From IMG/VR virus record IMGVR_UViG_3300025644_000002: a DNA stretch of 64,000 nt; one strand, 5' to 3'. The notes under the pieces are model-generated. The model was not told the DNA's origin. It saw nothing but the letters and a program-made list of their open reading frames with translations, and did no database searches. This stretch comes from a virus. Lineage: Duplodnaviria; Heunggongvirae; Uroviricota; Caudoviricetes. Shown here piece after piece: positions 1,638-62,265 of the stretch (position 1 is its first letter; each line of letters starts with the position of its first letter). Position numbers and translations under genes: made by a program.

Positions 1638-1982
1638 ATGTCATGGAAGCCGATGTGGGAATTGGAATACTGGTACGAACGTAAATTAGAGACAAGAGCT
1701 AAAGAAATTGAAGCTAATAAACTGGCCATTAAAAAAGCCTTAATTCAACGTGATATAATACTTAATAAAGAAATATACACTGCTTCTACAGTGATACCTG
1801 TTCAAATAAGTAAGAGTTATTCTGGGGGAATTATAGACGTTATATATGCTATGCAGGCGCTTGCCAATTTAGCAAATACGGCTGTTACTTGTGTTCATCA
1901 TAACATACGTTTTGCCGTTGATAAAGACACTAATATACAAAAGAAGTATAAACAACTAATGGAATTTTTGCTGAGCAAGTAA
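1638..1982 (+). CDS. hypothetical protein (114 aa)
   Basis: ORF track; RBS AAAGGAG upstream. Confidence 0.5.
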   Translation: MSWKPMWELEYWYERKLETRAKEIEANKLAIKKALIQRDIILNKEIYTASTVIPVQISKSYSGGIIDVIYAMQALANLANTAVTCVHHNIRFAVDKDTNIQKKYKQLMEFLLSK

Positions 1983-2017
1983 TTTCAATACCAAACTAAT
2001 TAAATGAAAGGAAGCAT

Positions 2018-2404
2018 ATGATAGCTCGCTGGGTCGCTTGGATAGATAATGGGCAATTCTTAAGGATGGACACGCGTCCATACATTGATATAAGCACTAG
2101 AGCTTTTAAAGAAGTAGTGTTAAAGATTTTAACAGGTAATCCTGACCATATTCACATTGTTCCTGTGCACTTTAATCCTGATTTGAGATTCTGGCTAATG
2201 TCTAGAGGTTTTGGTGATACTATAGTCTCCGGAAATCTTCAGGCACAGTATCTAAGGGATGGAAGCATTGTAATTCAATTAACACAAACTATGAAATTAA
2301 AGAAAAATAGCACTAATAGCTATAAACCTTGTAAGGATGTGATTCTTACATTTAGTTTAGCTCGTAGTGAGCTTGATGAATTAGTACAAAAATTTTACAA
2401 TTAA
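2018..2404 (+). CDS. hypothetical protein (128 aa)
   Basis: ORF track; RBS AAAGGAAG upstream. Confidence 0.5.
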   Translation: MIARWVAWIDNGQFLRMDTRPYIDISTRAFKEVVLKILTGNPDHIHIVPVHFNPDLRFWLMSRGFGDTIVSGNLQAQYLRDGSIVIQLTQTMKLKKNSTNSYKPCKDVILTFSLARSELDELVQKFYN

Positions 2405-8531: not shown

Positions 8532-8870
8532 ATGGAACCATCGCAAAGATTATTGATAGTTATTAGGGACATGCTTCTTGATGCAGAAAAGGTGTTTAGA
8601 TTAAAACCTAAGCATTCTCTTGGAAATACTTGGGGAATTTGTAATTATATAAGTGAACACCTCTTGTTCCATACGTTAGTTGGGAACGATAGACACGCAG
8701 TTAATGATTGGCTCTTTGACAGGTTCCCTGATTACGACAGTGTGTATAAGTTCACTCACGGTAGAACTCAAGTACATGCTTGGGCTATCCAGGCTGAGGG
8801 GCATAACTATGAACGCTCTGATTGGTGTTTGGCGGAATTGTTGAAATTACCATTATTGATCAAGGAGTAG
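8532..8870 (+). CDS. hypothetical protein (112 aa)
   Basis: ORF track; stop is TAG. Confidence 0.45.
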   Translation: MEPSQRLLIVIRDMLLDAEKVFRLKPKHSLGNTWGICNYISEHLLFHTLVGNDRHAVNDWLFDRFPDYDSVYKFTHGRTQVHAWAIQAEGHNYERSDWCLAELLKLPLLIKE

Positions 8871-14209: not shown

Positions 14210-15538
14210 CTAATTAGAGTACAGTTTGTTAACGCCCATAAGCAACAGTACTATTTTAGTTACTGAATCCATGGCGTTCTTTACGGCTTCCTCCGGAAGA
14301 TGCCTCATACCTAACCTAGTCATAAGCAGCATTTTGGCTAATTCACTCATAATCATCTCATATTGAGGTAATAGAGCTATGTATTCTATAATATTCTGTT
14401 TGTTGATAGCTCCAAGAGACAATACAGCATCTACAGTGCTTTTATCAGATAAAACCGCAGCCTCTTTTACTAAGTCTACTTTTAACATCTCTATGTCATT
14501 AGTACTATCTTCATAAGTTTCTGCTATTTTATCAATAAACACTTTTGGAGGTATAGGAGCTTCAATTGGACAAGCAATTAGCATTTCAGTGCCTTTCAGC
14601 AACATTGCCGCCTTATTTATATCAGTCTTGGTTGCTCCACAATGAATTAATGATCATTCTGCCTCTGAGAGGCTTAAATCACGTAATTCATGGCTGTTTT
14701 CTGCATATTTAGAGAACTCTGCACCTTTTAAGTAATAAAGGCCTACAGAGTCTTTTCCAACTGTGTGTTTATTTACTTTAACAGTATGTGGTATTTCATT
14801 TTGTAAGTATGATCCTAGCTTAATGAAGCTCACGTCCTTAGATAAATACCAACTAGATTCTTTTTCTACATATTTTGCTTCAGAAGTAGTTGTGTTGTCG
14901 ATGTAATAAGATACTTTTTCTCTTCCGGCCCATCCTGTAACTTTTAATGGGGTATCTTGATTATCCTCGCTAACTTCAGAAACTTTTCTTAATTCTTTGC
15001 CTAATTTAACAAACTTTGCTTCTTTAGGTAGTAACTTTCCGCCATTCTCTGAGTCCATCAGACTCTTAACAGGCATTTCAGTCAGGTAATACGCAATCTT
15101 CTGCAATCCATCCCAACCTGCTACTTGTACTTGTTTATTGCTAGAAGCTTCTAAGTCTTGTAATAGTTCTCTAATCTCAAAAGGCTTAGTGGCACTGCCA
15201 TCAGGCATAACTCACGCTCCGAAATCTCCTATTTTAGGAAAATCTCCGTCTATTTCTACATTTTCTGAAGACTTTTGTCCTAATTTCTCTAAAATAACCC
15301 AATCTTTATTCTTACTGATGCTAAGATACCCTGGACCTCCGTCTAGTTTATAAAGATTTGAAGAATATGACGATACTTTGTCCATTCCTAGTACTTCAAA
15401 AGGTTCAGAGACTGATTCTCCAAATTTTCAAACGCCAAGATCACCAACTTGTGGTTGGTCTTCTTCTAAAGTAAATGCTTCAGCCGTTTTCACATCATTT
15501 CTACTAAAATCATGATAATCTTTGTCCGATGTTACCAT
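14210..15538 (-). CDS. structural (baseplate/tail) protein, ~442 aa, with three in-frame TGA codons (15428-30, 15212-14, 14654-56)
   Basis: ORFs 14654..15208 and 14210..14605 plus the upstream frame form one continuous frame broken only by TGA; ends TAG at 14210-12. Confidence 0.55.
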
Positions 15539-15650
15539 AAGGTGTCTATCAGTGTCCCAAATCTTGTAGCAATTAGCATCTACAGACTCAGCAGTCTTTT
15601 CTTGGAAACTTGAAGCAGTTAATATCTCAAATTCTTCAGCTTCTGAAGCC

Positions 15651-16387
15651 TTAATAGGGAGTTCTCATACAAAATCTATGTTAGAATTAGCTTGTTTAAC
15701 TGTGTGATTACCTAAAGAGTCTTTAATAACTAACTGTCTATCTATATCAAGGTCCCTAATGAAAGAATCCACGATTTCTTCTTGACTCTCTGTTTTTGAC
15801 GCTAGTTTGTCTAAAACGTCTAATCTTCCGGTCTTTTTGAAGTTATTATGGATTTCTGGGTTGTTTTTAACAGTATTTAGTATTTCAACAACGGCTTTTT
15901 TGTCTATATGCTCAATTTTGTCAATAAATGAAGCTATTTTAGCAGGTCGTTCTTGTGAACTAGACTCGCTAGCTGAATTGTTTATACTCCCATCAGGAGA
16001 ATACTGTAATTGTGAGAACATGTCCAGTCCTGATTTAGGAGGAGACGACGCTACTCCTACAAATGCTCCTGGCGAAGTTAACATAGTTCTTAACACCTCA
16101 GTATTAAGTGGTAAAGTTCTTCCACCTGCCATAACTATGTCTAAAGGAGATAATTTCCAATCTTTGATTACTACTGGTATGGATGCCCCGGATATCTTTA
16201 ATACCCCTACCGCATATCCCTTTGTACTATCTTTTTTCTTCCACTGAACCACTGCAGGCTGATTTTGAGCGAACGGATATTGTTCGTAAAAATACGTAAT
16301 TACATTTCTAACCCACTTCGTTGCGTCCATATCCACTGAGTATGACGCTGTTTTAGTAAAAGAGTTCTTTATAAATAAGTTGTCCAT
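15651..16387 (-). CDS. structural protein (~240 aa); frame ends at TGA 15666-68, then ELPY, then TAA 15651-53
   Basis: ORF track 15665..16399; ATG at 16385-87 with a TGGAGA RBS. Confidence 0.5.
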
Positions 16388-16467: not shown

Positions 16468-17010
16468 CTACGTTATAGTCCATACTACTGTAAGTACTAC
16501 ACCACTTGCCGACGTTCCTGTCATTTGAAACTTTATTTGTTTTACATAGTTATGGATACTAGTTGCCAAGTCTTCACAAAAGATCTCCACAGTTTGGGCT
16601 ATTAACTCTGCATTGCTGCTACCTCATGTGGGTGTTATAAAGGGTATTATTGGTCCTACAGGAGTATAAGTTATAAATCCTACTGCTGTAGGTACTAATG
16701 TAGTAGCTTCCGCTAGTAAATCTTCATCAGATATACCTCTAGACCCTGAAATCTCCGCCAATGGGTTAGATATAAAAGTTAAAGATACATCAACCTCTGG
16801 TCATTCGGGTATAGTTATTTCTACATTAGAAAAGTTTGTAGTGATTCCAGTAACTCCTACTACAGCCTCGCTCATATATTCACTAATAATCTCCCCTAAC
16901 CTGATGCTTTTTTCATCAACTGTATAAGCTATTCGGTTATCGCCTTCTAAATAATAATACTTATAAAACTCCGCGATTAGCTCAGTCTTTAAATTAGTTT
17001 CACTTAACAT
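16468..17010 (-). CDS. structural protein, 180 aa, with two in-frame TGA codons (16801-03, 16624-26)
   Basis: ORF 16801..17010 continues in the same frame through two TGAs to TAG at 16468-70; the start overlaps the upstream TAA as TAATG. Confidence 0.5.
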
Positions 17011-18569
17011 TATTCTGATAAAGTCTTCACAGTATAAATATTCTCATCCAAAGGATCATAAATACTTGGCTGAATTATTGGAGGTGACGAAGGTCCCACT
17101 CCTGTACCATGTGTATGTCCCGCGTATAATTCTGTAACAAACTCTTTAGTAACTAACGTCTGACCCTCTGAGCCTCCGAGATACACATTTTTACCTTCAG
17201 GCACGTCAAGAGTTATTCCGCTGCTATCCAAAGTTATAGTAAGAGTAGTATCTCCTAGATTCAGTTTAACAGTGTATGCCTCATTATTTAACGTCTTTGT
17301 CAATTTCAACTCTGGAGTTGCAACATCCCCGGACTGCACTGTTGTCTTTAATATATCTGTACCGCCAAACTCTTTAGTATACATTTTACCATTAGTTGTG
17401 GTTTCTAGCTGATGGATGTGTCTTCCTCATATTCTACCCGTGTTTAACTTGCCAAAACTACTTACATATTGCTGTTTAATTCCGGTGTTGATAAAAGTAT
17501 AATCGTAACCTTGCCCAGCTTTCCAGGCTGTAGCATCAAAAGTTCCATCATATATTTGATGTCTATATAACTCTCCCGCTAAACTCCCGGACTCTAATTT
17601 CCCAAATCTATTTATCATTGAGCTATTATTATTTGTTACTGCTCGTTTAAATACCCAATGAAATAAAGAACCTGCCGGGTGTTCTTCTCCTATATCAAAT
17701 AGATCTGTAGCCCCTTGATACCCTAGATGTAACTTAGTATAGGTATTCTTCTGTTTAGAACCTCCAGTAGCTTGTCTAGTCTCTAATTGATACAAATGGG
17801 AATAAGGCGTGCCTTTTAAATTCTTAACATGAGGTATGTATCCAGACTTTATAATAGTTTGATCTGTGAATTGGTGCTTGAAAGGAATACTGCGGTGAGT
17901 CTCAGTGTTTTCTGAGATATGGTCAAGATACCCAGTAGTATCATCAAACTTTGAATATACTTCTAAATGTGATGTAGCTCCTTTATCTATTCCTGCAGAT
18001 TTCTTAGGATGATATGAGTCTCTAACAAAATTAGTTGCGCTTCGTCTTTCATATCGTTTAGTTGTAATATTTAGTTTCTTATAAGCTCCATCCAAAGTTA
18101 TTTCAGCGAAGGCGTTAGAAAACCAACTAAAGAATCCATCTGGAGCCATTAGGAAGTTAGTTTTGTTCTTTCCACCTATTTTTAATAACACTCCCCCCTC
18201 TGGTACAGCTTCTGCAGATAAACCGCCGAAGGCCGAAGATAGTCCTGAGGGGATATAAGTAAGAATCTGTGCAACATTATTTCATTTGTCCAAGGCCACC
18301 AAACACTCCTGATTTTCAGGAGGCACTGATACTACTCCCGACCCAAATGCAGAAGTTGGTATAAATATCGGAGGTAACGCCAAATACGTCTTCTCAGGAT
18401 CTGTCTCATCTATTGCCTGAATATATATGTCTTTTTTATCTAGGGCGTTTACATCAGGACTCTCTACTGAAACTACCCTAGCTCTAAATACTTCATAATT
18501 TCTTTCCATACTTGAATATAACCCAATGTCTTTTAAAAAACAATATTTTCTGGTATAAGAATTTCGCAA
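17010..18569 (-). CDS. baseplate central spike protein, gp5/VgrG-like (OB-fold N-terminus), ~519 aa, with two in-frame TGA codons (18282-84, 17427-29)
   Basis: Three track ORFs (18282..18569, 17427..18191, 17010..17384) are co-linear in one frame, separated only by single TGAs. The N-terminus (ALPPIFIPTSAFGSGVVSVPPENQECLVALDK*NNVAQIL) aligns with the T4 gp5 OB-fold (PTTSAGKGMGGVFSLPRVGTEVLVSFLDGDPNRPIIL). An alternative ATG start lies at 18507-09. Confidence 0.6.
18552..18563 (+). promoter_or_regulatory. TGGTATAAGAAT promoter-like box facing the 18.6-19.7 kb non-coding region
   Basis: Same box as the early promoters, on the plus strand; no plus-strand ORF follows. Confidence 0.35.
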
Positions 18570-18589: not shown

Positions 18590-19690
18590 GCACCTGGGTG
18601 GTATGACATCCAGTTAAAGATAACCCCAGCAATGGGACTAAAAGCAGTCGGGTCTGTGAAATTATACCTGGCATTGCGTTGTTCTCCTTCGGGAGTGCAA
18701 ACATTTATACACTGCGAACTTCTATTTATCTTGTAAAAAATAGTCCAACACTCCAGGCTAACTGCGAGGCGTGAAGGTCGAGATACGTATCCCCTGAGGG
18801 GTAGGCAGAAATGTCTGTATAGTAATCGCAAGATATCCTGTCTGTCAAGCGGGTTATCAATTATATAGTTTGTCGGGATCAAGATATTGAGGCCTTCATT
18901 GGCTTCTAAGTCAAGAAGAGACAACTACTATGATGAAGGATCGGAGGCTGTCATGGCTAATGACTTACGAGGGCGAGTGGCATTATGTGGCTGAAAACTA
19001 CGTAACCACAACCGGGAACGCGTCCTCCCAATCACAGAAAAACCATAATGTAGCTCAGTTGGTAGAGCAACGGAATATTAATCCGTAGATCACGAGTTCG
19101 ATTCTCGTCATTTATAATGAAAGCAATTAGATTCCTGGCTGCTTATAATAAAAGATCACTAATATCGGCCTGTATAACGTCGAGCTCTGCGCCTCGCAAG
19201 GGTTGCAGCAGTATTTATAAGGAAGCGGTTAAGCTTGGCGGCAGCTAAGATAGTCGTGAAATTGTAGAGTTAATGTAAGTGGAAAGACCTGGCTCCATAC
19301 CTGGAGCTGTGATTGGTGTATTACGACGACGTAAGTCTGCGTGGAAACGAGGGGAATTGAAATGATCCCTTTAAAGATATACCGTACTAACTGTATTCTC
19401 AGGAAAAGTACAAACTTCATAAAACTGGGCCAAAGACGTAATAAAAACGTTGGGTGTCTATCCGAAGGAGTTGCAAGGCTAGAGCCTTCAATTTGGAAAA
19501 GAATTTAAGATAGGGCTTCCTACTTAACGTAGGTGGTGCGGGGATTAATAAGTCTCGCAAAGGGAGTTGCATCCCTCGGAAGAAGAGTTTACCCCTCAGC
19601 CACTCTCATCTTCCATAAAAAGAATACCAGGAAAGCCACCTGAAAAATTGGCCTTACGCCCGTGCACTCTGTGCCATCTTACAAGCGTAT
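18590..19690 (+). ncRNA. Candidate structured non-coding RNA region (~1.1 kb, hairpin-rich, higher GC)
   Basis: No ORF of 60 aa or longer on the plus strand. Hairpins include CTCC-TTCG-GGAG (UUCG tetraloop), GCTCCA-tacc-TGGAGC and GGGA…TCCC. A promoter box lies upstream and a tRNA-like gene is embedded. Confidence 0.35.
19044..19116 (+). tRNA. tRNA-like gene with canonical D and T arms, anticodon loop ATATTAA (formal anticodon AUU) and an imperfect acceptor stem
   Basis: GTAGCTCAGTTGGTAGAGC D-arm, ACGGA/TCCGT anticodon stem, ACGAG-TTCGATT-CTCGT T-arm; acceptor pairs poorly. Confidence 0.35.
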
Positions 19691-26981: not shown

Positions 26982-27191
26982 ATGAGTAAAGTAGGAAACA
27001 ACAGCGGAAAAGATTATATTCTATGTTGTTGTATATGCTCTTCAACTAGAAAGGACATCCACATGGTGGGGCATCGTAATAAAGATAACCACTTAATAGG
27101 CTTCCTTTATGTATGTGATGAACACACTAAACAAGTAGAAGGAAAAAACTTTCAAGTAAAGTTCGTAGATGAAAAAGAGGAGACTAAATAA
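26982..27191 (+). CDS. small Cys-rich zinc-finger protein
   Basis: CCCICSS…CDEH. Confidence 0.4.
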   Translation: MSKVGNNSGKDYILCCCICSSTRKDIHMVGHRNKDNHLIGFLYVCDEHTKQVEGKNFQVKFVDEKEETK

Positions 27192-27888
27192 TATGGGAGA
27201 CGGAACCCCACTAGGTGATCGTATGAAAGATTATGAAGCTACCTATAAATACAAGCTTCACAAAAGAATGCCAGTAATAATAAGAGTAGACGGTAGAGCG
27301 TTTCACACTCTTACAAGAAAATTATATGGAAGAGGATGGTCTACCGGATTCTCTGCAAATATGATGGAAACTGCTAGGGCTTCTATGGAAGATATGCAGT
27401 CAACAAAGTTTTGCTATGGTCAATCTGATGAGATCAGTTTTTTATTAACGGATTATAAAACTCATAACACACAGTCGTGGTTCAATAATTCCATACAGAA
27501 AATAGTATCAATTACAGCAGCTATCGTAAGCACTAACTTTTATTCAATAACTGGCGAAAAAGTGCAGTTTGATGCTAGAGCTTTTAATTTGGCAAAAGAT
27601 GAAGTGACAAACTATTATATCTGGAGACAACAAGATGCTATACGCAACGCTGTCCAGATGGTAGGAAGAGAGCATTTCTCTCAGAAAGAACTTCACATGA
27701 GAAGTGTTGAGAATATAAAACATCTTCTATCCAAAAAGATAGGAATTAATTTTGATGACTTCTCTAGTTTAAGACGACAAGGGTACTGTATAGACAATAA
27801 CCACCCAGATATGAATATCCCAGTGTTTGCCTCAGCTAGGGGTAAAGATTACATTGAAAAACATGTATATTTAATAGAAAATAATTAA
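27169..27888 (+). CDS. Thg1-like protein (tRNA-His guanylyltransferase family 3'-5' nucleotide polymerase)
   Basis: VIIRVDGRAFHTL ~ Thg1 VVVRLDGRNFHRF; CYGQSDEISFLL ~ AYGQSDEYSFVF; YYIWRQQDAIRNA ~ YLSWRQADCHINN. Confidence 0.7.
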   Translation: MKKRRLNNMGDGTPLGDRMKDYEATYKYKLHKRMPVIIRVDGRAFHTLTRKLYGRGWSTGFSANMMETARASMEDMQSTKFCYGQSDEISFLLTDYKTHNTQSWFNNSIQKIVSITAAIVSTNFYSITGEKVQFDARAFNLAKDEVTNYYIWRQQDAIRNAVQMVGREHFSQKELHMRSVENIKHLLSKKIGINFDDFSSLRRQGYCIDNNHPDMNIPVFASARGKDYIEKHVYLIENN

Positions 27889-30810: not shown

Positions 30811-31338
30811 ATGAGTTATTTCATGATAGACATAGAGTCTGACGGGGAATGCCCTGGAATATTCTCTATGGTAGAGTTTGCAGCAATAAGGGTCACGGAA
30901 GCGAAGGACGAGTCCGTCCACGAGCGCCTAAGGCCTATTACTAACCTATGGAAACCTGAAGCTTTAGAAAAGATAGGGGTAACTAGGGAAGAAACTCTTG
31001 GATACGGAGATCCTGAAGAAGCTATAAAAACTTTAGCAGAGTTTGTAAAAGAAACTTCAAAAGGAAGGCCGATGTTTATATCTGATAACAATGGGCATGA
31101 TTGGCAGTTCATAAATTATTACTGTCATAAGTACTTAGGGATAAATCCCTTTGGGCACTCAAGTGCAAACCTAGGAAGTCTTTTTAAAGGGTTGGTTCAA
31201 ACTCCTTTTGAAAACTTCAAACACCTGAGAGATACTCCTCATACACATAGCTCTATCGATGACGCTATGGGTAATTTGGAAGCGTTTCTAAAATTAATAA
31301 AGACTTATAACCTTCCGGGATATTTAGATAAGGAGTAG
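30811..31338 (+). CDS. DEDDh-type 3'-5' exonuclease (DnaQ/RNase T-like)
   Basis: Exo I motif MIDIESDG and Exo III motif HSSIDDAMG. Confidence 0.6.
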   Translation: MSYFMIDIESDGECPGIFSMVEFAAIRVTEAKDESVHERLRPITNLWKPEALEKIGVTREETLGYGDPEEAIKTLAEFVKETSKGRPMFISDNNGHDWQFINYYCHKYLGINPFGHSSANLGSLFKGLVQTPFENFKHLRDTPHTHSSIDDAMGNLEAFLKLIKTYNLPGYLDKE

Positions 31339-38202: not shown

Positions 38203-39276
38203 ATGAATACAGTCCTAACAGTTTTAGAAACCCAAATAAAGGAAGGGTGGGTAAAGCGAAGAAAACATCCAGAGTTTCCACTTTGGATATATAATTATAC
38301 CCATGCCACACAGTATGCTCGAAATTGGAACGATACCACTACTAGATGTAGGGGTCTTATACTAGATGAATATGGAACTGTAGTAGCCAACCCTTTTAGA
38401 AAATTTTTCAACTATACAGAATTAGAAGGACTAGGTATCGAGCTCCCAGATGACCACTACAGCATTTTTAATAAACTAGACGGATGTCTATTTATAATGG
38501 TTATGTGGAGGGGGCATTTAATTAAATCTACAAGAGGCTCTTTTGATAATGAATATATTACAGAGGCCAATGTAGTCTTAGAAGAAAAATACCCTGACCT
38601 TACTATAAGGGAGGACTTCACATACTGCTATGAGTTCTTAACACCTACTCTTAAGAAAGGGGGGATGACCTGTATCACCTACCCAGAGAGCGACCTAAGG
38701 CTATTGGCAGTACGCGATACGTTTACTGGCAGAGAGATAGGGTTGCACGCTGTTACTACTTGTATACCAAGAACAGAGCTATATGAACATGATTGCGATG
38801 TAAGTGAGTTATATAATGTACCAAATCAAGAAAACAAAGAAGGATTTGTGTTAGCATATGATAACGGGTTCAGAGTTAAAGTAAAATTTGACTGGTATGT
38901 AAGACATCACCGTATATTGCAGCTTTGCAATGATAAAACGGTATGGAAATACTTATCAGATCCAGAATTAGATATACAAGAGTTAATTGATATTGTACCA
39001 GATGAATACTATAAATGGCTTCATACCTCTATAGATAACTTTAGAGAGAATTATGTGATATTAGCAAACACTGCTTGTAAACAATACATGCACCTTATAA
39101 CTAGTTTCCCAGAATCAATTGATATGAAAAAACGAACTTCCAAAGCAGTAGCAGAAAAAGTCATAAATATTGGAAATAAACAAATAATTTCTTTAGTATT
39201 TACAATGTTACAAGGGAAAAACATAAAGCCCTTAATTTGGAAATATTTAAAACCAAAACAAACGGAGAAAAAATGA
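38203..39276 (+). CDS. rnlA: RNA ligase 1 (T4 RnlA-like)
   Basis: Motif I FNKLDGCL; EGFVLAYDNGFRVKVKFDWYVRHH ~ T4 Rnl1 [24 protein letters not shown]. Confidence 0.65.
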   Translation: MNTVLTVLETQIKEGWVKRRKHPEFPLWIYNYTHATQYARNWNDTTTRCRGLILDEYGTVVANPFRKFFNYTELEGLGIELPDDHYSIFNKLDGCLFIMVMWRGHLIKSTRGSFDNEYITEANVVLEEKYPDLTIREDFTYCYEFLTPTLKKGGMTCITYPESDLRLLAVRDTFTGREIGLHAVTTCIPRTELYEHDCDVSELYNVPNQENKEGFVLAYDNGFRVKVKFDWYVRHHRILQLCNDKTVWKYLSDPELDIQELIDIVPDEYYKWLHTSIDNFRENYVILANTACKQYMHLITSFPESIDMKKRTSKAVAEKVINIGNKQIISLVFTMLQGKNIKPLIWKYLKPKQTEKK

Positions 39277-39940: not shown

Positions 39941-41005
39941 ATGAGACATTTAGCAACAATCCAACTCATAGCTAATTTAGAGCCTATCTCTGGAGCAGAT
40001 GTAATTGAAAAAGCAACTGTAAAAGGCTGGCATCTAGTAGTTAAGAAGGGGGAATTTCAAATAGGTGATAAATGCGTCTACTTTGAAGTGGACTCTTTGT
40101 TGCCAGAAATAGAGCCGTTTGAATTCTTAAAGAAAAACGGTGTCAAAACAATAGATGACGGCACAAGAGGTTATCGCTTACGAACTATAAAATTGCGTAA
40201 GCAAATTAGTCAAGGGCTAGCCATGCCATTAGATACTTTCGAAGAGCTCGCCGATGGCCCCGAAGTGGGAACAGACGTAAGTGAACTTTTGAAAGTAGTA
40301 AAATATGAAGCACCCATTCCAGCATGCTTAAGTGGCCAGATTAAAGGCCACAGACCTTCCTGGATTCCTAAGACGGATGAAGAACGTGTACAGAATCTTG
40401 TAGATGAAATAAAAGAATGGGCAGGAACAGAGTGCTACATAACAGAGAAATTAGATGGATCGTCATCTACCTTTTATTATGCACCTAACTACCGAAAAGC
40501 AACACCTTTCGGAGTATGCAGTCGGAAGCTTGACCTAATAGAGAATGACAAAAATTCTTTCTGGAAAGTCGCTAGAGATATTGACGCAGAAGAGAAAATG
40601 TCTAAACTTGGTATAAATGTAATTTTCCAAGGAGAATTACTGGGGCCAGGGATTCAGAAAAATAAATACAAATTGTCTGCTACAGAAGTAAAAATGTTTA
40701 ACGCTTTTACTATACAAGATGGTGGCTTTGGAAGTATTGAGAGCTTTCTAAATCTTATATTTGGGGACTACACAACTGAGGGGGAAGTTCGCGTACGAGG
40801 GTTAGATAGAATATTTAATACTGTACCTGTCCTTAATCCAAAGATGGTGTTAAACCATACAGTAGACGAATTAGTAGAGCTTTCTAAAGGCCCAAGCCTT
40901 CTAAATCCTGATATCCCAAGAGAGGGAATTGTGATTAGAGCGAGAGATGGTAGCTTTAGTTTTAAAGTAATTAACCCTGACTTCTTAATTAAGTTTGGAG
41001 AATAA
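39941..41005 (+). CDS. rnlB: RNA ligase 2-like nucleotidyltransferase (Rnl2 family) with an extra N-terminal domain
   Basis: Motif I TEKLDGSS; FQGELLGPGIQKNKYKL ~ T4 Rnl2 FGEFAGPGIQKNVDY; motifs EGIVIR and SFKVINPDF. Confidence 0.6.
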   Translation: MRHLATIQLIANLEPISGADVIEKATVKGWHLVVKKGEFQIGDKCVYFEVDSLLPEIEPFEFLKKNGVKTIDDGTRGYRLRTIKLRKQISQGLAMPLDTFEELADGPEVGTDVSELLKVVKYEAPIPACLSGQIKGHRPSWIPKTDEERVQNLVDEIKEWAGTECYITEKLDGSSSTFYYAPNYRKATPFGVCSRKLDLIENDKNSFWKVARDIDAEEKMSKLGINVIFQGELLGPGIQKNKYKLSATEVKMFNAFTIQDGGFGSIESFLNLIFGDYTTEGEVRVRGLDRIFNTVPVLNPKMVLNHTVDELVELSKGPSLLNPDIPREGIVIRARDGSFSFKVINPDFLIKFGE

Positions 41006-41413: not shown

Positions 41414-42328
41414 ATGAGACAAGTAATAATACTACGGGGGTTACCCGCAAGCGGTAAGACTTCGTATGCCGTAGATATGATGGATAAAATGCCAGATACA
41501 TACAAACGTGTAAATAGGGATAGTCTACGAAGCATGGTTGATGGTGGAGTATACTCTAAAGGAAATGAGAAAATAATTAAAGCAATTAGAGACTCTTTAA
41601 TCTTTAGATACTTAGATGCCGGAAGATCAGTATTCGTAGATGATACAAACTTACACAGCTCAAATGAGGAGCATATTAGAAAAATAGTGGCGGACTATAA
41701 CATTTTACGGGAAGTTAAGCACGACGTATTAGTTGTGGTTAGAGAATTCCCTACAGATGTATTTGATGCCATTGATCGAGACGCATTACGTACAGGATCG
41801 GCCCATGTAGGCTCTAAAGTTATTTATGATATGTACAGTAGGTTTCTAAAGAAAGATGAGCCTCACGACTATCCTGAGCCTCCAGGCACGGTTGAGTTGG
41901 TAGACGGCTTACCTAAGGCAATCATTTGTGACTTAGACGGCACGATGGCATTCCTTAAAGGCCGTAACCCTTATGACGCCTCTACTTGTGAGAACGATAC
42001 TTACAATGCGATTTTGGGGGAAATTCTTCACGTTATGGACAAACAGGGATACCAAATAATCTTTTTATCTGGAAGATCGGAAAAATACCTTTCAGAAACT
42101 AGACAGTTTTTGAAAGCAAACCTTCCGTTTCCTCATTGGAAGATGTTCATGAGACCATTGTTTGAGCATAATATAAGAGATTCAATTCTTAAACGCAAAC
42201 TTTATGATGAACACGTTAAAGATAAATACAACGTATTTTGCGTGTTTGATGATAGAGACCAAGTAGTTGGTCTATGGCGTAAAGACTTAGGTCTACAATG
42301 TTTCCAAGTAAACTACGGAAACTTCTAA
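41414..42328 (+). CDS. pnk: polynucleotide kinase / 3'-phosphatase (T4 Pnk-like)
   Basis: N-terminal P-loop GLPASGKTS; C-terminal HAD motif ICDLDGT. Confidence 0.65.
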   Translation: MRQVIILRGLPASGKTSYAVDMMDKMPDTYKRVNRDSLRSMVDGGVYSKGNEKIIKAIRDSLIFRYLDAGRSVFVDDTNLHSSNEEHIRKIVADYNILREVKHDVLVVVREFPTDVFDAIDRDALRTGSAHVGSKVIYDMYSRFLKKDEPHDYPEPPGTVELVDGLPKAIICDLDGTMAFLKGRNPYDASTCENDTYNAILGEILHVMDKQGYQIIFLSGRSEKYLSETRQFLKANLPFPHWKMFMRPLFEHNIRDSILKRKLYDEHVKDKYNVFCVFDDRDQVVGLWRKDLGLQCFQVNYGNF

Positions 42329-44169: not shown

Positions 44170-44949
44170 ATGAACATAGATTCACATTTTATTCAAGGGG
44201 CCACTCATCGGGTTTGTGAAGATTATACACTTCATGGGGAAACAGATGAGATAGCTTATATTATTGTATGTGATGGGTGTTCAAGCGCTCCTCACACAGA
44301 TTTTGGAGCTAGATTAATAGCCCATAGTGTAGAACAAGCCATTAGAGAATTTGGAGAGCTGACTCGTCAAAAATTAGAGTGGCAACTTCAATTATGTAAA
44401 GGTTATACTGATGTCCAAGGCCTGGACCGCCGTATGCTGCTGTCAACTGTGTTGGTAGCTATCTATAATAAAGAAAAACAAAGCTTTTATATTCTTATGG
44501 CCGGAGATGGACATTGTTTCTTAGATTCAAAAGAAGGACCGCTTCATATAGATATTCAATCACCTCATAATACTCCATACTATCCTGCGTATAACATTAC
44601 TCGAAAAGATCAGGAAGAATACAAAGAGTGTTTAAAGGACAAAGGACAAACAGTTGTTCACATGAATGATGGTGACGAGGATCCTACCAATGTAGCATTA
44701 GAAACTGGAATGCCCTTTATATTTCAGCCTGATTACCCGATAGCTTCGGTAATTTTAACTACTGATGGTATAGACCAAGTAATAGATAGGGATACTGGAG
44801 AGAGAGTAGTGATTGATGATATCATCACTCATTTCCCAAGTGCCGCAGGAGCATTCGCTGTAAGAAAACTAAGGTTTCTTAAGAAAACCTGGAATAGAAA
44901 TTATATTACTAACGCAGACGATATTGGAATTGCTGGAATAATATTATGA
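44170..44949 (+). CDS. PP2C-family Ser/Thr phosphatase
   Basis: VCDGCSSAPHTDFGA ~ PP2C xDGxGGxxxG motif; sits between the vWA and kinase genes. Confidence 0.5.
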   Translation: MNIDSHFIQGATHRVCEDYTLHGETDEIAYIIVCDGCSSAPHTDFGARLIAHSVEQAIREFGELTRQKLEWQLQLCKGYTDVQGLDRRMLLSTVLVAIYNKEKQSFYILMAGDGHCFLDSKEGPLHIDIQSPHNTPYYPAYNITRKDQEEYKECLKDKGQTVVHMNDGDEDPTNVALETGMPFIFQPDYPIASVILTTDGIDQVIDRDTGERVVIDDIITHFPSAAGAFAVRKLRFLKKTWNRNYITNADDIGIAGIIL

Positions 44950-46637
44950 AGGTTTTAGTACAAGGAAAGGGGCAAGTATCATTATTAGACTCTAATTTTG
45001 TAGCTCAAGGTGGAGAGGGTAAAGTATATGTAAAAGGTGGAAGAGCTTATAAAATATTTCATGACCCAAAAACTATGATACCTGAAGAAAAAATTAGGGA
45101 ACTGTCAGTTCTTACTAAGAATACCATTATAAAACCTGAGAATTTAATTTACACTACAAAAAACACGTTAATAGGATTTATGATGCAGACTGTACCTCAG
45201 TCTATTCCATTACCAAGAATGTTTACATCTGCGTATCTTAATAGAAACAATTTAAATAACGATACCGTTACTAAATTAGTTACAAATATTAAGGATACAA
45301 TTAGTCATGTGCACGATCATGACATAATAATGGTCGATGGTAACGAATTAAATTATTTAATAGAAACTAGAAAGCATACTACTGCTTATTGTATAGATGT
45401 AAACTCATGGCAAACTCCTAATTATCCAGCTACAGTAATTATGCCCTCTATTAGAGATTGGCATGCTACAGAATTCACAGAAATTTCAGATTGGTTTTCC
45501 TTCGCTGTAATAGCTTGTCAACTGTTTATAGGAATTCACCCATATAAGGGAAAGAATTCTCACTTTAAACGAGCTACATTAGAAGAACGTATGAGAGCAA
45601 ACGTATCAATCTTTAACCCTGAAACGCGTGTTCCGGGCGCAGTAAGGGACTTTACAAATATACCTAAGAGTTATTATGATTGGTTTAAAGAAGTATTTGA
45701 AAATGGTTATAGAAGTACTCCTCCAGACATGAAAGGGCAGTACATTATACTTCCAATAACTCCTATAATAACAACACACACCGGAAGCAAATATTTTACA
45801 ATACAACAATTAAACGATTATCCTGGCGACATAATTGACTGCACTTATTTTGGTAGACAGTATATAATATATACCAAAAAAGATGTTGTCATATATAACA
45901 ATAATAGTTATATTAAAGATACCACCTCCAAGGTTTTTTCACACAGTATGTCTCAAAAGACGTTTCTTGTGAAAACTAAGGATGAATCTTTAGTATACAG
46001 ATCATTGGAAGATAGCCAATCTCCTTATCATAGTACAAATATTAAGGTTGAAAAAACTATGATATACGAAAATAGGCTATATGGCGTAAACAAGGATAGA
46101 TTTTTTGAAATAGATGTATTAGATACCGGCTCAAAGCCTACGTTTTATATTTTAAATACTTGGGAAATATTCAATAATTCTACAGAAATGTTAGATGGAG
46201 TATTATGTTCTAGTATTTTAGGTAAAACTCATTTATATTTACCATACGCACCCAACAAATGTGCAATTGTAGCAATTCCTGAACTAGATAAGTACAAGAT
46301 AATTGATGCAAAATGCCGAGACAGGGTTTGTATGATAATAGGACAATCAGGCAGCAAGTATGATAAATTTATTATCGTATTCGATGAAAATTTCAAAAAA
46401 TATGATATAAGAATCTTGAAGGACGCAGATAATATGTTGAATTTTATCTGCCTACCTAACGGATTAACTATAAGTATACATGAAGATGGCGCTTTAGAAA
46501 TGTTTCGCGCTAAGGCTTCAAGTGATGTGCAGGTCTACAAAGACTCTGCCATCAAGTCGTCGATGACACTGGCCCACGAGGGCAATATTGTTCGGTTCTA
46601 TGAAATGAATCGGATGTATCAACTAAAAATGAAATAA
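44946..46637 (+). CDS. eukaryotic-like Ser/Thr protein kinase
   Basis: Gly-rich loop AQGGEGKVYV, AYKIF (VAIK-like), DWFSFAVIACQLFIGIHPYKG (DxWSxG…P). Confidence 0.55.
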   Translation: MKVLVQGKGQVSLLDSNFVAQGGEGKVYVKGGRAYKIFHDPKTMIPEEKIRELSVLTKNTIIKPENLIYTTKNTLIGFMMQTVPQSIPLPRMFTSAYLNRNNLNNDTVTKLVTNIKDTISHVHDHDIIMVDGNELNYLIETRKHTTAYCIDVNSWQTPNYPATVIMPSIRDWHATEFTEISDWFSFAVIACQLFIGIHPYKGKNSHFKRATLEERMRANVSIFNPETRVPGAVRDFTNIPKSYYDWFKEVFENGYRSTPPDMKGQYIILPITPIITTHTGSKYFTIQQLNDYPGDIIDCTYFGRQYIIYTKKDVVIYNNNSYIKDTTSKVFSHSMSQKTFLVKTKDESLVYRSLEDSQSPYHSTNIKVEKTMIYENRLYGVNKDRFFEIDVLDTGSKPTFYILNTWEIFNNSTEMLDGVLCSSILGKTHLYLPYAPNKCAIVAIPELDKYKIIDAKCRDRVCMIIGQSGSKYDKFIIVFDENFKKYDIRILKDADNMLNFICLPNGLTISIHEDGALEMFRAKASSDVQVYKDSAIKSSMTLAHEGNIVRFYEMNRMYQLKMK

Positions 46638-47161: not shown

Positions 47162-47839
47162 ATGAGATTATTAATGAGAGCGTTAGTAGGAAGTAGATTG
47201 CATGGGTTAGATACTCCTATAAGTGATTTCGATTATAAAACTGTATTTATTGAGACTACTTCAAATATTTTAGCTTTACCAGAGCACCAGCCCAGCGATC
47301 CAAAGGATCCAGCAGATACCTGGGAATTAGCTAGATTTCTACATTTCGCATTAAGAAGTAATCCTACAATTCTGGAAACTTTTAAAGCGACATTTACTAC
47401 AGAAAACGAGAACTGGTGTGAAGAGTTAAGAAGTCTATTTCCAGACGTTTGGAGTTCTAAATTAGTTTTCCACTCGTACAGGGGTTATGCTCAATCGCAA
47501 CGCAAAAAGCTTTTAGAAAATGATGAAGCCCTTAGTAATGGAAATGTAGAATTAGATACCATTAGAAAAAGAAAATCATCAGCGGCCTGGTTAAGAATGT
47601 TATATAATGGATACGAACTATTACAAACTGGCGATTTTACAGCCAGAATAGCTGATACAGAAGTAGGCATTCTTTGCAGAAAATATAAGGAAGGCGAATC
47701 TACTATACCAGAGGTTATAAAAACTTGTAGCTCTTGGGAAGAAAAACTAGAAGACGCGTTTAATAAGTCTACAAAAAAAGAAGCTAACTCAAAATTAGTA
47801 AATGATTTTCTATTAAAAATAAGAAAAGTTTCTTGGTAA
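47162..47839 (+). CDS. minimal nucleotidyltransferase (Pol-beta superfamily)
   Basis: GSRLHGLDTPISDFDY matches GS…SDxD. Confidence 0.45.
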   Translation: MRLLMRALVGSRLHGLDTPISDFDYKTVFIETTSNILALPEHQPSDPKDPADTWELARFLHFALRSNPTILETFKATFTTENENWCEELRSLFPDVWSSKLVFHSYRGYAQSQRKKLLENDEALSNGNVELDTIRKRKSSAAWLRMLYNGYELLQTGDFTARIADTEVGILCRKYKEGESTIPEVIKTCSSWEEKLEDAFNKSTKKEANSKLVNDFLLKIRKVSW

Positions 47840-48956: not shown

Positions 48957-49029
48957 TGGGGGCTCATCCAACGTAAAGGACGTCTGCAGAGGCAGGCGAA
49001 TGTGGGTTCAAATCCCACACCCCCAACCA
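48957..49029 (+). tRNA. tRNA-like gene with encoded ACCA, a canonical T-arm, and a 7-bp CGTCTGC/GCAGGCG + AGAG tetraloop hairpin in place of the anticodon arm
   Basis: TGGGGGC…ACCCCCA-A-CCA; GTGGG-TTCAAAT-CCCAC; no 5+7+5 anticodon arm can be folded. Confidence 0.35.
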
Positions 49030-49031
49030 AC

Positions 49032-49103
49032 GCCGTGGTCGTCTAATGGTAAGACGCTCTTAGTCCGCTAAGAGAAATGGAGGTTCAACTCCTTCCCTAG
49101 GCT
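49032..49103 (+). tRNA. tRNA-like gene with a non-canonical anticodon arm (CTCTT-AGTCCGCT-AAGAG, 8-nt loop, or a 6-bp stem with 6-nt loop)
   Basis: D-arm TCGTCTAATGGTAAGACG, T-arm GGAGG-TTCAACT-CCTTC, acceptor GCCGTGG/CCTAGGC with 2 mismatches. Confidence 0.35.
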
Positions 49104-49112
49104 CTAATTTAT

Positions 49113-50167: not shown

Positions 50168-50388
50168 TGAATAAATTAACTCAAGAGGAAATGAAAACCC
50201 TCTTTCAAACAACAAATAAAATGGGACTAAACAACCCCCTCTGGAGACGTGGGCAATGTATTTTTAATGCACTTTATATACTTTATCCGGAAGTAGCAGA
50301 AGAGATTAGAGCTACAGCAATGGATCCATTTTACCAGGATAGTAGAATAGCTGCCTGTATAAACCACATTACAAAGGATGAAGGATGA
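50149..50388 (+). CDS. hypothetical protein (79 aa)
   Basis: ORF track. Confidence 0.4.
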   Translation: MRETLVMNKLTQEEMKTLFQTTNKMGLNNPLWRRGQCIFNALYILYPEVAEEIRATAMDPFYQDSRIAACINHITKDEG

Positions 50389-51092
50389 AAAATAAAATAT
50401 TTGTACTGGGAGACGTACATGGTAATTACCAGGGCATGCTCCAATGTTTCGAACGTTCTAACTTCAATTATGAGGAGGATACATTAGTCTTTCTTGGCGA
50501 TATAAATGACGGGTGGCCAGATACGGCAAAGTGTTTCGAAGAACTTTTAAAGATTAAGAATTTAATATAGGTTATAGGTAATCACGACGTATGGCTACTT
50601 GGGTGGTTAGAATATGGACAAACTCCCTCATTGTGGACTAGACAAGGTGGTATGGCTACAATTGCCAGCTACGTGTCAGCCCCACTAGAATGGAGAACTA
50701 AGCACCTACATTATCTACGTAACAAAACAGTATTTTACCACATCGATGATGAGAACAAAATCTACGTACACGGAGGATTCGATCAAAAGGTCCCTATCCG
50801 GGATCAGGATCCGTATAATTTGTATTGGAATCGTCACATCATTGAAGTGGCAAAAATTTACGTAACTCAAAAGCGTGAATTTAAAGATTATAAAGAGGTA
50901 TTCGTTGGGCATACAACTACAGGAATGTTTGGAACGGATAAACCTTTAAATATTTCCAATCTATGGATGTTAGACACCGGATCAGGTTGGGAAGGAAAAC
51001 TTACTATCATGGATGTAAATACGCATGAGTACTGGCAATCAGACTTATCAGAAGATTTATATCCGAACGACTACCATGGAAGAGAACGATAA
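50385..51092 (+). CDS. ApaH / PP-lambda-type metallophosphoesterase interrupted by a single in-frame TAG (50568-50570)
   Basis: Motif 1 GDVHG and motif 2 FLGDINDGWPD lie before the TAG; motif 3 VIGNHD lies immediately after it in the same frame; VHGG and GHT follow. Track ORFs 50385..50570 and 50631..51092 are the two halves. Confidence 0.6.
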
Positions 51093-51099
51093 TTAAGTT

Positions 51100-51182
51100 G
51101 GGCAGCTGGCCGAGCGGTCAAAAGCGCCAGATTGTAGATCTGGTCCCTACGGGGTTCGGAGGTTCGAATCCTTCTCTGCCCA
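51100..51182 (+). tRNA. tRNA-Tyr (GTA), class II
   Basis: Anticodon arm CCAGA-TTGTAGA-TCTGG; long variable arm; acceptor GGGCAGC. Confidence 0.65.
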
Positions 51183-51213
51183 CACTTTTAAATAATAAAA
51201 ATCAAACTAACAA

Positions 51214-59666: not shown

Positions 59667-60218
59667 ATGAAGCCTAAAAGAATTAAAGGTATATCTCCTG
59701 CAATAATGCTGACAAACCCAAAGTTTGCAGTTAACGTTGGAGCTACAGTTAGGGCAGCGTCATGTTGGGGAGCAGAGCAAGTTTATTGGACTGGACATAG
59801 AGTGCAGCATCCAGATGAATGGACAGAAAAATATAGACTTCCAAGGGAAGAACGTATGAAGGGATACAAAGAAGTATCTATGCATAGAGTTGATACGTTA
59901 AAACATACATTGAAAAATTTTAGCGAAGACACAGTTCCGGTAGCAATAGAATTAAGGCCTGGATCTGAAATGTTATTTGATTTTGAACATCCTGAAAACG
60001 CAGTGTATGTATTCGGCCCAGAAGATGGTGGGCTGGATTGGAAAACATTACAACATTGTCATCGATTTGTGGTACTACCCACGGCCCACTGTACTAATTT
60101 AGCAGCAGCCGTAAATGTAGTATTAGCTCATCGGAAAGAACAAAGATTTAAAAAGGGGTTAATTCCCGATATTTATGATTCTTTACAAGAGGATCGTGGA
60201 TTTATAGGTAACTGCTAA
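59667..60218 (+). CDS. SpoU/TrmH-family RNA 2'-O-methyltransferase
   Basis: IMLTNPKFAVNVGATVRAASCWG, VYVFGPEDGGLD and TAHCTNLAAAVNVVL match SPOUT motifs 1-3. Confidence 0.55.
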   Translation: MKPKRIKGISPAIMLTNPKFAVNVGATVRAASCWGAEQVYWTGHRVQHPDEWTEKYRLPREERMKGYKEVSMHRVDTLKHTLKNFSEDTVPVAIELRPGSEMLFDFEHPENAVYVFGPEDGGLDWKTLQHCHRFVVLPTAHCTNLAAAVNVVLAHRKEQRFKKGLIPDIYDSLQEDRGFIGNC

Positions 60219-61883: not shown

Positions 61884-62180
61884 ATGTCCCCTTTTTTATT
61901 TATATTATGTAGAAAGGATTTAGATCCAGTTTACGCAGCAGTCCAAGGAGGGCATGCAGTTGCAGAAATTTTACTTAATGGCAACACACAGGAATGGAAT
62001 AACGATTATCTCATTTATCTTGCAGTTCGGGATGAACAGGAGCTCGAAAAATGGCAATACAAACTTTCATCCCGGGATGTTAGTCATTCCTCTTTTTATG
62101 AGCCTGATTTAGACGGGCAACTAACTGCTATTGCAGTTGAAAATAATAATAAATTATTTAAAAGCTTAAGAACCTTATAA
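61884..62180 (+). CDS. PTH2-like (peptidyl-tRNA hydrolase 2 family) protein
   Basis: ILCRKDLDPVYAAVQGGHAVAE resembles the PTH2 VRxDL…GK…AQxxHA motif. Confidence 0.35.
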   Translation: MSPFLFILCRKDLDPVYAAVQGGHAVAEILLNGNTQEWNNDYLIYLAVRDEQELEKWQYKLSSRDVSHSSFYEPDLDGQLTAIAVENNNKLFKSLRTL

Positions 62181-62183
62181 ATA
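62176..62183 (+). promoter_or_regulatory. TATAAATA (T4-type late-promoter-like box) immediately upstream of the CUA tRNA
   Basis: ttataaatagtggctgggtagc. Confidence 0.3.
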
Positions 62184-62185
62184 GT

Positions 62186-62261
62186 GGCTGGGTAGCTCAA
62201 TTGGATAGAGCGGGGGACTCTAAATCCCTGTCAGCTACAGGTTCGAGCCCTGTCCCGGCCA
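62186..62261 (+). tRNA. putative amber suppressor tRNA (anticodon CUA, loop CTCTAAA)
   Basis: Hand fold: acceptor GGCTGGG/CCCGGCC (1 GU pair), D-arm TAGCTCAATTGGATAGAGC, anticodon stem GGGGA/TCCCT, U33 present, T-arm ACAGG-TTCGAGC-CCTGT. Confidence 0.65.
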
Positions 62262-62265
62262 CAAT

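Follow-up and report, generated by a model that had tools for sequence, protein, structure and literature searches.

A predicted amber suppressor tRNA in an aquatic phage with TGA recoded to tryptophan in some of its genes

Suppressor transfer RNAs (tRNAs) encoded by phages and recoding that is restricted to particular genome modules are well described (bioRxiv 10.1101/2021.08.26.457843; PMC13037316), and suppressor tRNAs are also present in jumbo phages that use the standard code (PMC8386662). Among the recoded phages reported by Borges et al., the Lak, crAss, Garnet and Topaz phages use code 15, and the Jade and Agate phages use code 4 (bioRxiv 10.1101/2021.08.26.457843). The Zeta crAss-like phage Lera (Echekvirus) has recoded TGA to tryptophan and encodes both a tRNA-SUP-TCA and a tRNA-SUP-CTA, but contains no amber-suppressed genes (PMC12386605). 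The combination of an opal-recoded phage with an extra amber suppressor is therefore already known, Lera being the precedent. Here we analyzed a stretch of 64,000 nucleotides (nt), termed the window in the following, from an uncultured large phage of marine and aquatic metagenomes that is present in dozens of samples. The window contains a tRNA gene with the anticodon CUA. The reading that we prefer, and to which we give slightly more credence than doubt, is that this gene encodes a predicted functional amber suppressor that would be co-transcribed with its neighbors, charged by the host and able to read UAG partially in competition with release factor 1 (RF1), with TAG not being reassigned and a metallophosphatase gene being its sole visible client.

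Three further loci (L096, L009 and L004) were joined to the window with zero mismatches, resulting in 90.5 kb that were examined. The phage resembles Lera in several respects: TGA stands for tryptophan in a subset of genes whose homologues carry Trp at these sites, the tRNA genes form a large block, an extra CUA suppressor is present, and TAG has not been reassigned. No sequence similarity was detected between Lera, a gut phage, and the phage studied here. In-frame TAG codons are absent from Lera, in which TAG is rare and always has another stop codon close behind. In contrast, TAG ends about 17% of the gene models of the phage studied here, one gene is split by TAG, and the 90.5 kb that were examined, out of at least 212 kb, contained no tRNA with the anticodon UCA. 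With the phages of Borges et al. it shares the separation of recoded and standard-code modules, the location of the suppressor in the standard-code part, a low GC content and TAA as dominant stop codon. However, the suppressors of the latter phages fit the codon that is recoded, and TAG stands for Gln there, whereas here a CUA suppressor is combined with a recoded TGA, TAG aligns with Tyr, Leu or Phe rather than Gln, the tRNA lacks Gln-type features, and the phage is of marine or aquatic instead of gut origin.

The CUA tRNA gene and its immediate neighbors are arranged as follows:

61884..62180, plus strand: open reading frame (ORF) of 98 amino acids (aa), function not assigned, no Pfam match, ending 5 nt 5' of the CUA tRNA
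62186..62261, plus strand: tRNA gene with anticodon CUA (positions 34-36 = 62220-62222), found with ARAGORN and Rfam RF00005
62266..62350, plus strand: tRNA-Leu (UAG anticodon), 4 nt (CAAT) 3' of the CUA tRNA

ARAGORN reported a tRNA with the anticodon cta at 62186..62262 (+), and the Rfam model RF00005 matched 62186..62261 with 58.9 bits (gathering score 29), model positions 1-71 being fully matched and zero non-canonical pairs being flagged. With this score the CUA tRNA ranks 7th among 21 phage tRNA matches and thus in the upper half. The 76-nt RNA folds into a canonical cloverleaf with the acceptor stem GGCUGGG/CCCGGCC, which includes G1-C72 and a single wobble pair (U4.G69), the D-arm GCUC-AAUUGGAUA-GAGC, the anticodon stem GGGGA/UCCCU with the 7-nt loop C32-U33-C34-U35-A36-A37-A38, and the T-arm ACAGG-UUCGAGC-CCUGU, followed by the discriminator A73. 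None of U8, A14, G18G19, U33, A37 and the T-loop UUCGAGC is missing. With a variable region of 7 nt and no stem in it, the body is of class I. The gene does not specify the CCA end; CAAT comes directly after A73 and leads to tRNA-Leu. The unconstrained minimum free energy fold of the CUA tRNA was unremarkable (z = -1.3), as is usual for single tRNAs, and has no bearing on the tRNA call. As expected for an amber suppressor, the 7-nt loop has U33 ahead of the anticodon CUA (positions 34-36) and a purine after it, at position 37. An earlier inspection of the letters alone (the sequence-only reading) had proposed both this anticodon and, from a hand-made fold, the GGGGA/UCCCU stem with the CUCUAAA loop; ARAGORN and Rfam confirmed the former, and the Rfam alignment agrees with the latter. 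The gene is a genuine tRNA gene and almost certainly a suppressor by its anticodon. Together with tRNA-Leu it looks like a tandem tRNA processing unit.

The label "Pyl" is what ARAGORN prints for every CUA anticodon. An identity as tRNA-Pyl was ruled out. In tRNA-Pyl, the D-loop is very small, the anticodon stem has 6 bp, the variable loop has 3 nt, and G18G19 and T-psi-C are missing, whereas the tRNA described here has a normal G18G19, the T-loop UUCGAGC, a D-loop of 9 nt, an anticodon stem of 5 bp and a variable region of 7 nt. The CUA anticodon is the only feature that the two share. No pyl genes were seen in this phage.

We consider it distinctly unlikely that the CUA tRNA is a non-decoding molecule, either an uncharged relic or pseudogene or a decoy or spare body for host nucleases that target tRNAs. 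Such a function would suit an island rich in tRNA-repair enzymes and aberrant tRNA-like genes (49032..49104, 48957..49029 and 19045..19116), and the length of the variable region, 7 nt, is unusual. On the other hand, the cloverleaf is flawless and contains all universal tertiary nucleotides, unlike the aberrant neighbors, the Rfam score is in the range given above, and the loop with A36-A37-A38 corresponds to that of tRNAs for codons beginning with U.

The only credible in-frame TAG in the 90.5 kb was found in the following gene:

50385..51092, plus strand: calcineurin-like metallophosphatase of 235 codons with an in-frame TAG at 50568-50570 (codon 62, ...KNLI-stop-VIGNHD...); Pfam Metallophos, E = 9e-12

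The Pfam match and the motifs on both sides of position 50568 bear out the earlier proposal that a phosphatase gene is split by a single in-frame TAG. The codon lies between the GDVHG/GDINDG motifs (GDxHG/GDxxDG) and the GNHD motif, it is followed by 173 stop-free codons, and the catalytic motifs are all kept. In the nearest orthologue (P0001; 67% identity over 98% of the length) the gene is uninterrupted and has TAT at this codon. The orthologue is encoded on a related tRNA-rich phage fragment, on which NADAR is located directly 3' of the phosphatase gene, as it is here, and which also contains a DUF7831 gene. In an alignment of 119 homologues, the column corresponding to the TAG contains 77 Y, 26 L, 13 F and one each of P, M and A, but no Q, K or W. 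TAG was present in all four assemblies that were read (the window, L002, L003 and L095). Gene calls for the close version of the protein are split: 43 contigs have a fragment of 61 aa, and about 50 have C-terminal fragments. The exception, a single full-length entry of 235 aa with Gln at codon 62 (P0287; L095 479..1186), was rejected as a code-15 gene-call artefact, as the DNA has TAG at this position. The gene for tRNA-Tyr(GUA) at 51100..51183 (+) begins 8 nt past the stop codon of the phosphatase gene, most homologues of which have Tyr at the TAG position; the proximity is probably coincidental.

Judged from its sequence, a functional phosphatase would require decoding of UAG, and this would be the only gene in the 90 kb to do so. 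In the preferred reading, the CUA tRNA would be transcribed together with the surrounding plus-strand ORFs and tRNAs and released by RNase P excision, 3' trimming and CCA addition. A host synthetase would charge it, and it would then read UAG in competition with RF1. The suppressor would thus act as a partial, site-limited decoder, and formation of the full-length phosphatase would depend on the phage's own tRNA.

A possible, though in our view doubtful, alternative is that the suppressor is idle or directed at the host, either by causing read-through of host TAG codons during takeover or as a buffer against nonsense mutations, and that the TAG of the phosphatase gene is an incidental nonsense mutation, tolerated or disabling, that derived from TAT. 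Zeta crAss-like phages including Lera keep CUA suppressors without amber-suppressed genes, and host-weakening roles have been proposed for them (PMC12386605). The presence of a single in-frame TAG in the 90.5 kb, the TAT codon of the nearest relative, which is one transversion away, and the Tyr found in 77 of the 119 homologues are in line with this alternative. It is opposed by the intact phosphatase frame on either side of the TAG, with the 173 stop-free codons on its 3' side and the preserved catalytic motifs, and by the finding that TAG is the sole allele recorded across dozens of samples.

The use of TGA differs strictly between modules. On the plus strand, 14 gene models end in TGA, about half of the TGA-ended ORFs overlap the next start codon as ATGA or GTGA, and no credible in-frame TGA was found in plus-strand genes. 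The ATG of the phosphatase gene overlaps the TGA stop codon of the preceding ORF (ATGA), which places it in the standard-code module. The minus strand, in contrast, contains chains of ORFs in the same frame that are separated by TGA alone. When TGA is read as a sense codon, the minus-strand genes tile end to end, and 14 of the 20 models contain TGA. The regions concerned are located at 12.8-18.7 kb of the window (-) and at -5.3 to -17 kb relative to the window (L009 and L096). Three of the genes are:

14210..16387, minus strand: gene for a 725-aa protein with four in-frame TGA codons (15667, 15430, 15214 and 14656), ending with TAG (14212-14210)
16468..17010, minus strand: gene for a 180-aa protein with two in-frame TGA codons (16803 and 16626), ending with TAG (16470-16468)
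17010..18569, minus strand: gene for a protein of about 500-520 aa, in-frame TGA codons (18284 and 17429), ending with TAA

For the 725-aa protein, an exhaustive HMMER search retrieved uninterrupted homologues of 650-780 aa with 32-42% identity, in addition to its own standard-code fragments. The four TGA sites align with W in 34 of 52 sequences, with F in 24 and W in 8, with F in 32 and W in 14, and with W in 52 of 52, respectively. As the TGA sites align with Trp in the homologues and the genes tile, TGA encodes Trp in the minus-strand modules. The recoded proteins, which the sequence-only reading had taken for structural ones, gave no match in sequence searches of PHROG, Pfam or PDB. The C-terminal sequence ...GHTHGTGVGP... 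of the protein encoded by 17010..18569 is reminiscent of a spike HxH motif. Neither a release factor nor a tryptophanyl-tRNA synthetase was seen in the 90.5 kb, and the phage tRNA-Trp has the anticodon CCA, G24 and a wild-type D-stem, which shows that it is not of the Hirsh type. The sequence-only reading had stated that TGA must be decoded in this genome, and the Trp residues of the 725-aa homologues at the TGA sites support this statement.

TAG ends 17 of 111 gene models on the plus strand and 5 of 20 on the minus strand, i.e., 22 of 131 in total (~17%). Three genes that contain TGA end in TAG, namely 16387..14210, 17010..16468 and the gene at -14421..-15023 relative to the window. Downstream of the TAG of 16387..14210 the next in-frame stop codons are TGA and TAG, and TAA follows only about 60 codons further on. 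This context indicates that TAG terminates exactly where TGA is read as sense. In-frame TAG codons were screened throughout the 90.5 kb by considering the coding potential around every TAG with 30-50 stop-free codons on each side (varied by region). The phosphatase gene, which was the only credible case, belongs to the standard-code plus-strand module and not to the recoded one. The TAG junctions at 8868, 30802 and 65620 were rejected as read-through sites, as in each case a Shine-Dalgarno-like sequence and the ATG of a separate gene follow within a few codons. A reassignment of the code-15 type would show numerous in-frame TAG codons and Gln at the aligned positions; here there is one in-frame TAG, and Gln is absent from the aligned column (a single site). 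In conclusion, TAG is not reassigned in the examined genome and is a working terminator also in the modules in which TGA encodes Trp.

These results bear on the proposal of the sequence-only reading that both stop codons are reassigned under temporal control, in which a late promoter, the octamer TATAAATA, would drive the CUA tRNA, and TAG would be a stop codon early and a sense codon late in infection, parallel to TGA. The element in question is:

62176..62183, plus strand: octamer TATAAATA, judged not to be a promoter for the CUA tRNA

The octamer does adjoin the CUA tRNA, TGA truly encodes Trp in a distinct set of genes, one gene split by TAG exists, and Borges et al. proposed that suppressors time late genes in recoded phages (bioRxiv 10.1101/2021.08.26.457843). 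Nevertheless, only the TGA half of the proposed dual reassignment held, given the 22 gene models that end in TAG and the single in-frame TAG. The genes 16387..14210, 17010..16468 and -14421..-15023 contain TGA and yet end at TAG, the phosphatase gene is located in a module that uses TGA as stop codon, and TAG is not depleted as a terminator. The claim that TAG is read as sense in late genes is not supported, for the first two of these reasons.

The promoter itself fares no better. The TAA stop codon (62178-62180) of the ORF 61884..62180 lies within TATAAATA, and the octamer ends 2 nt before the first base of the tRNA. The TATA box of T4 late promoters is centered near -10, and transcription begins about 6 nt downstream of the motif. 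A start of the T4 type from TATAAATA would therefore fall on base 4-5 of the tRNA, inside the acceptor stem, and an intact acceptor stem could not be formed. On both strands of the window, TATAAATA occurs 22 times, compared to 12.6 +/- 3.4 times in 100 dinucleotide-preserving shuffles of the window, one of which reached 22; the octamer is barely enriched and close to its chance frequency. None of the minus-strand copies falls in the 100 nt preceding any of the six minus-strand gene starts at 12.8-18.7 kb, the block with the TGA-containing genes, whereas the recoded gene for the 725-aa protein is preceded by a sigma-70-like TTGACT-17 nt-TATATT sequence and GGAG. Sibling tRNAs of the array also have AT-rich leaders following a TAA stop codon (ttaataaact, aaattaat, ataattaagtt). 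A consensus scan revealed no distinctive promoter or terminator adjoining the CUA tRNA. No gp55-like late sigma factor was found among the Pfam matches of the called genes, no search aimed at gp55 having been made. We conclude that TATAAATA, which is indeed present next to the tRNA, is a by-product of a stop codon within AT-rich DNA. The CUA tRNA is part of a co-directional array, with gaps of 4-5 nt to the 98-aa ORF upstream and tRNA-Leu downstream, and is most likely co-transcribed with the neighboring ORFs and tRNAs and not from a late promoter of its own. Altogether, a dual reassignment with temporal control appears very improbable.

With respect to the amino acid carried by the CUA tRNA, the sequence-only reading had named Trp, Gln and Lys as candidates. 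As it had pointed out, the loop CUCUAAA differs from the Trp-type loop CUCCAAA by one base. A1-U72 and G73 are found in the tRNA-Trp(CCA) of the phage, and a U1.U72 mismatch with G73 in its tRNA-Gln(UUG). In bacteria, the Trp set comprises A1-U72 and G73, and the Gln set a weak 1-72 pair (U1-A72 or a mismatch) together with G73. With G1-C72 and A73, the CUA tRNA is neither of the Trp type nor of the Gln type. A class II body of the Tyr, Leu or Ser type was excluded by the stemless 7-nt variable region; the phage's tRNAs for Tyr, Leu and Ser measure 84-93 nt, and the long variable arm that bacterial tRNAs for these three amino acids have is absent from the CUA tRNA. The class I body, G1-C72, A73, C34 and U35 would fit a Lys-type tRNA, whereas position 36 is A and a Lys-type tRNA is expected to have U. 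In work by Normanly, Kleina, Abelson, Miller and McClain from 1990, many E. coli tRNAs with A73 were reportedly charged by lysyl-tRNA synthetase when given a CUA anticodon. Compared with the other tRNAs of the phage, the CUA tRNA is closest to those for Phe, Arg and Ile (66-70%), and the best annotated phage tRNAs are a tRNA-His (83%), the tRNA-Lys(CUU) of Streptomyces phage Shaeky (81.5%) and a tRNA-Trp (81%). As these similarities to annotated and own tRNAs form a mixture of His, Lys, Trp, Asn and Arg, no isotype call was made. The identity elements thus point to Lys, while the single client codon would be served best by Tyr, Leu or Phe.

The classical amber suppressors, i.e., supF tRNA-Tyr CUA and supE tRNA-Gln CUA of E. 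coli and the psu1+ tRNA-Ser of T4, are laboratory mutants that arose by single-base changes. The loop CUCUAAA of the CUA tRNA is identical to that of supF. The proposed role resembles that of the classical suppressors in that suppression would be partial, in competition with RF1, and TAG would still serve as terminator. In contrast to them, the CUA tRNA is encoded by a natural gene and has no obvious parent among the phage's own tRNAs.

Several observations weigh against the preferred reading. One in-frame TAG is thin evidence and may be a tolerated nonsense mutation derived from TAT, from which it differs by one base. The sampled copies are nearly identical, and the fixation of TAG therefore says little on selection. 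An efficient suppressor would also lengthen 22 phage proteins, and reading of the TAG stops at 8868, 30802 and 65620 would result in an in-frame fusion to the next gene. Back-up stop codons are not clearly in excess, the median distance being 8 codons from TAG to the next non-TAG stop codon compared to 7 codons from TAA to any stop codon. Lys, which is suggested by the identity elements, does not occur in the TAG-aligned column of the 119 homologues. Finally, the analysis covered about 90 kb, and the genome comprises at least 212 kb.

An extension of the preferred reading, which we regard as rather unlikely, is that the phage operates two parallel read-through systems, a module-wide use of TGA for Trp and a gene-specific UAG switch in which the CUA tRNA places Tyr, Leu or Lys, and not Gln, at phosphatase codon 62. 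If this were true, synthesis of the phosphatase would be gated by the build-up of a phage tRNA, and the system would represent either the beginnings of a second reassignment or a dedicated translational timer.

Exact-protein look-ups retrieved the phage from 45-84 blocks of a public-assembly collection, the longest contig measuring 211,738 bp, and the 98-aa protein encoded by 61884..62180 is identical on 50 contigs. A blastn search with 7.9 kb against 50,697 phage records gave matches to tRNA segments alone. NadE-anchored searches for relatives containing both the phosphatase and the tRNA yielded none in a viral-contig collection and 80 loci among metagenome contigs, with at most 44% identity and no suppressor tRNA in any of them. 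Homologues of the downstream 249-aa protein led solely to an unrelated T4-like marine phage. Three exact-pattern scans of IMG/VR for the CUA tRNA did not recover the phage studied here and matched two unrelated phages. In the first, a high-GC phage, a Gln-like CUA tRNA (L001 333..408 (-); U1-A72, G73) has a 21-nt anticodon arm identical to that of the CUA tRNA studied here. In the second, a phage of 174 kb (L008), the pattern match is a degenerate tRNA-Ile-like sequence; this phage also encodes a class II CUA tRNA of 98 nt at 1968..2065 (+), which adjoins tRNA-Ser(CGA).

ARAGORN identified 22 tRNA genes in the window, all located on the plus strand. The 90.5 kb contain 28 tRNA genes, which cover all 20 amino acids and include the CUA tRNA, and one transfer-messenger RNA (tmRNA). 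Genes for NAD salvage were also found in the 90.5 kb. The CUA tRNA is part of a translation and RNA-repair island of the phage, and further features of the plus-strand module are:

27169..27888, plus strand: Thg1-like protein, interleaved with tRNAs, as are the next six
30811..31338, plus strand: RNase T-like exonuclease
38203..39276, plus strand: Rnl1
39941..41005, plus strand: Rnl2-like ligase
41414..42328, plus strand: PNKP
47162..47839, plus strand: RlaP
59667..60218, plus strand: SpoU methylase
44170..44949, plus strand: PP2C
44946..46637, plus strand: kinase-like protein
L004 17994..18365 (= window ~70387..70758, past the window end): tmRNA closing the tRNA array; tag peptide GRPAVKLAA

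The host appears to be bacterial, judging from Shine-Dalgarno sequences, start-stop overlaps of the ATGA type, the tmRNA and the class II tRNA-Tyr. One copy of the contig, at NCBI, bears the label "MAG: Candidatus Scalindua sp." and looks like a phage contig that was misbinned into a bacterial genome. An ORF of 114 aa at L009 3510..3854 (-) (window ~-5321..-5665) contains one Mito_carr repeat (Pfam, E = 1.2e-14), which is unusual in a phage.

A match to the Rfam GOLLD RNA (RF02032) was obtained at 18968..19405 (+). It covers the whole model with 124.8 bits, which is below the gathering score of 150 (E = 3.3e-34). The GOLLD-like RNA is located in a non-coding stretch that extends to about 20007, between the TGA-recoded minus-strand block and the plus-strand module. 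In its variable insert, at 19045..19116 (+), an Rfam tRNA match of 58.7 bits was found that was not called by ARAGORN; it has the anticodon loop AUAUUAA (nominally AUU) and a poorly paired acceptor stem. A tRNA-like minihelix at 48957..49029 (+) shows an acceptor-like UGGGGG/CCCCCA helix, a perfect T-arm (GUGGG-UUCAAAU-CCCAC) and an encoded ACCA, but has neither a D-arm nor a normal anticodon arm. It is situated directly 5' of an odd tRNA at 49032..49104 (+), which scores 38.3 bits with Rfam and has mismatches in the acceptor stem and a 6-nt anticodon loop GUCCGC (8 nt with the closing pair open); ARAGORN gives a 2-base "anticodon" (cc) for it.

Recoding and suppressor tRNAs of phages have been documented mostly from the gut. 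The phage described here adds an abundant aquatic and marine case in which two codes are cleanly split by module and which carries a "spare" amber suppressor with exactly one visible client codon. In practical terms, annotation with the standard code breaks up genes of this phage, code-15 gene callers give the phosphatase a false Gln, and "Candidatus Scalindua" is the bin to which the contig was assigned. The phage offers a tractable natural case for the question of whether spare suppressors are idle, directed at the host, or a first step toward a second reassignment.

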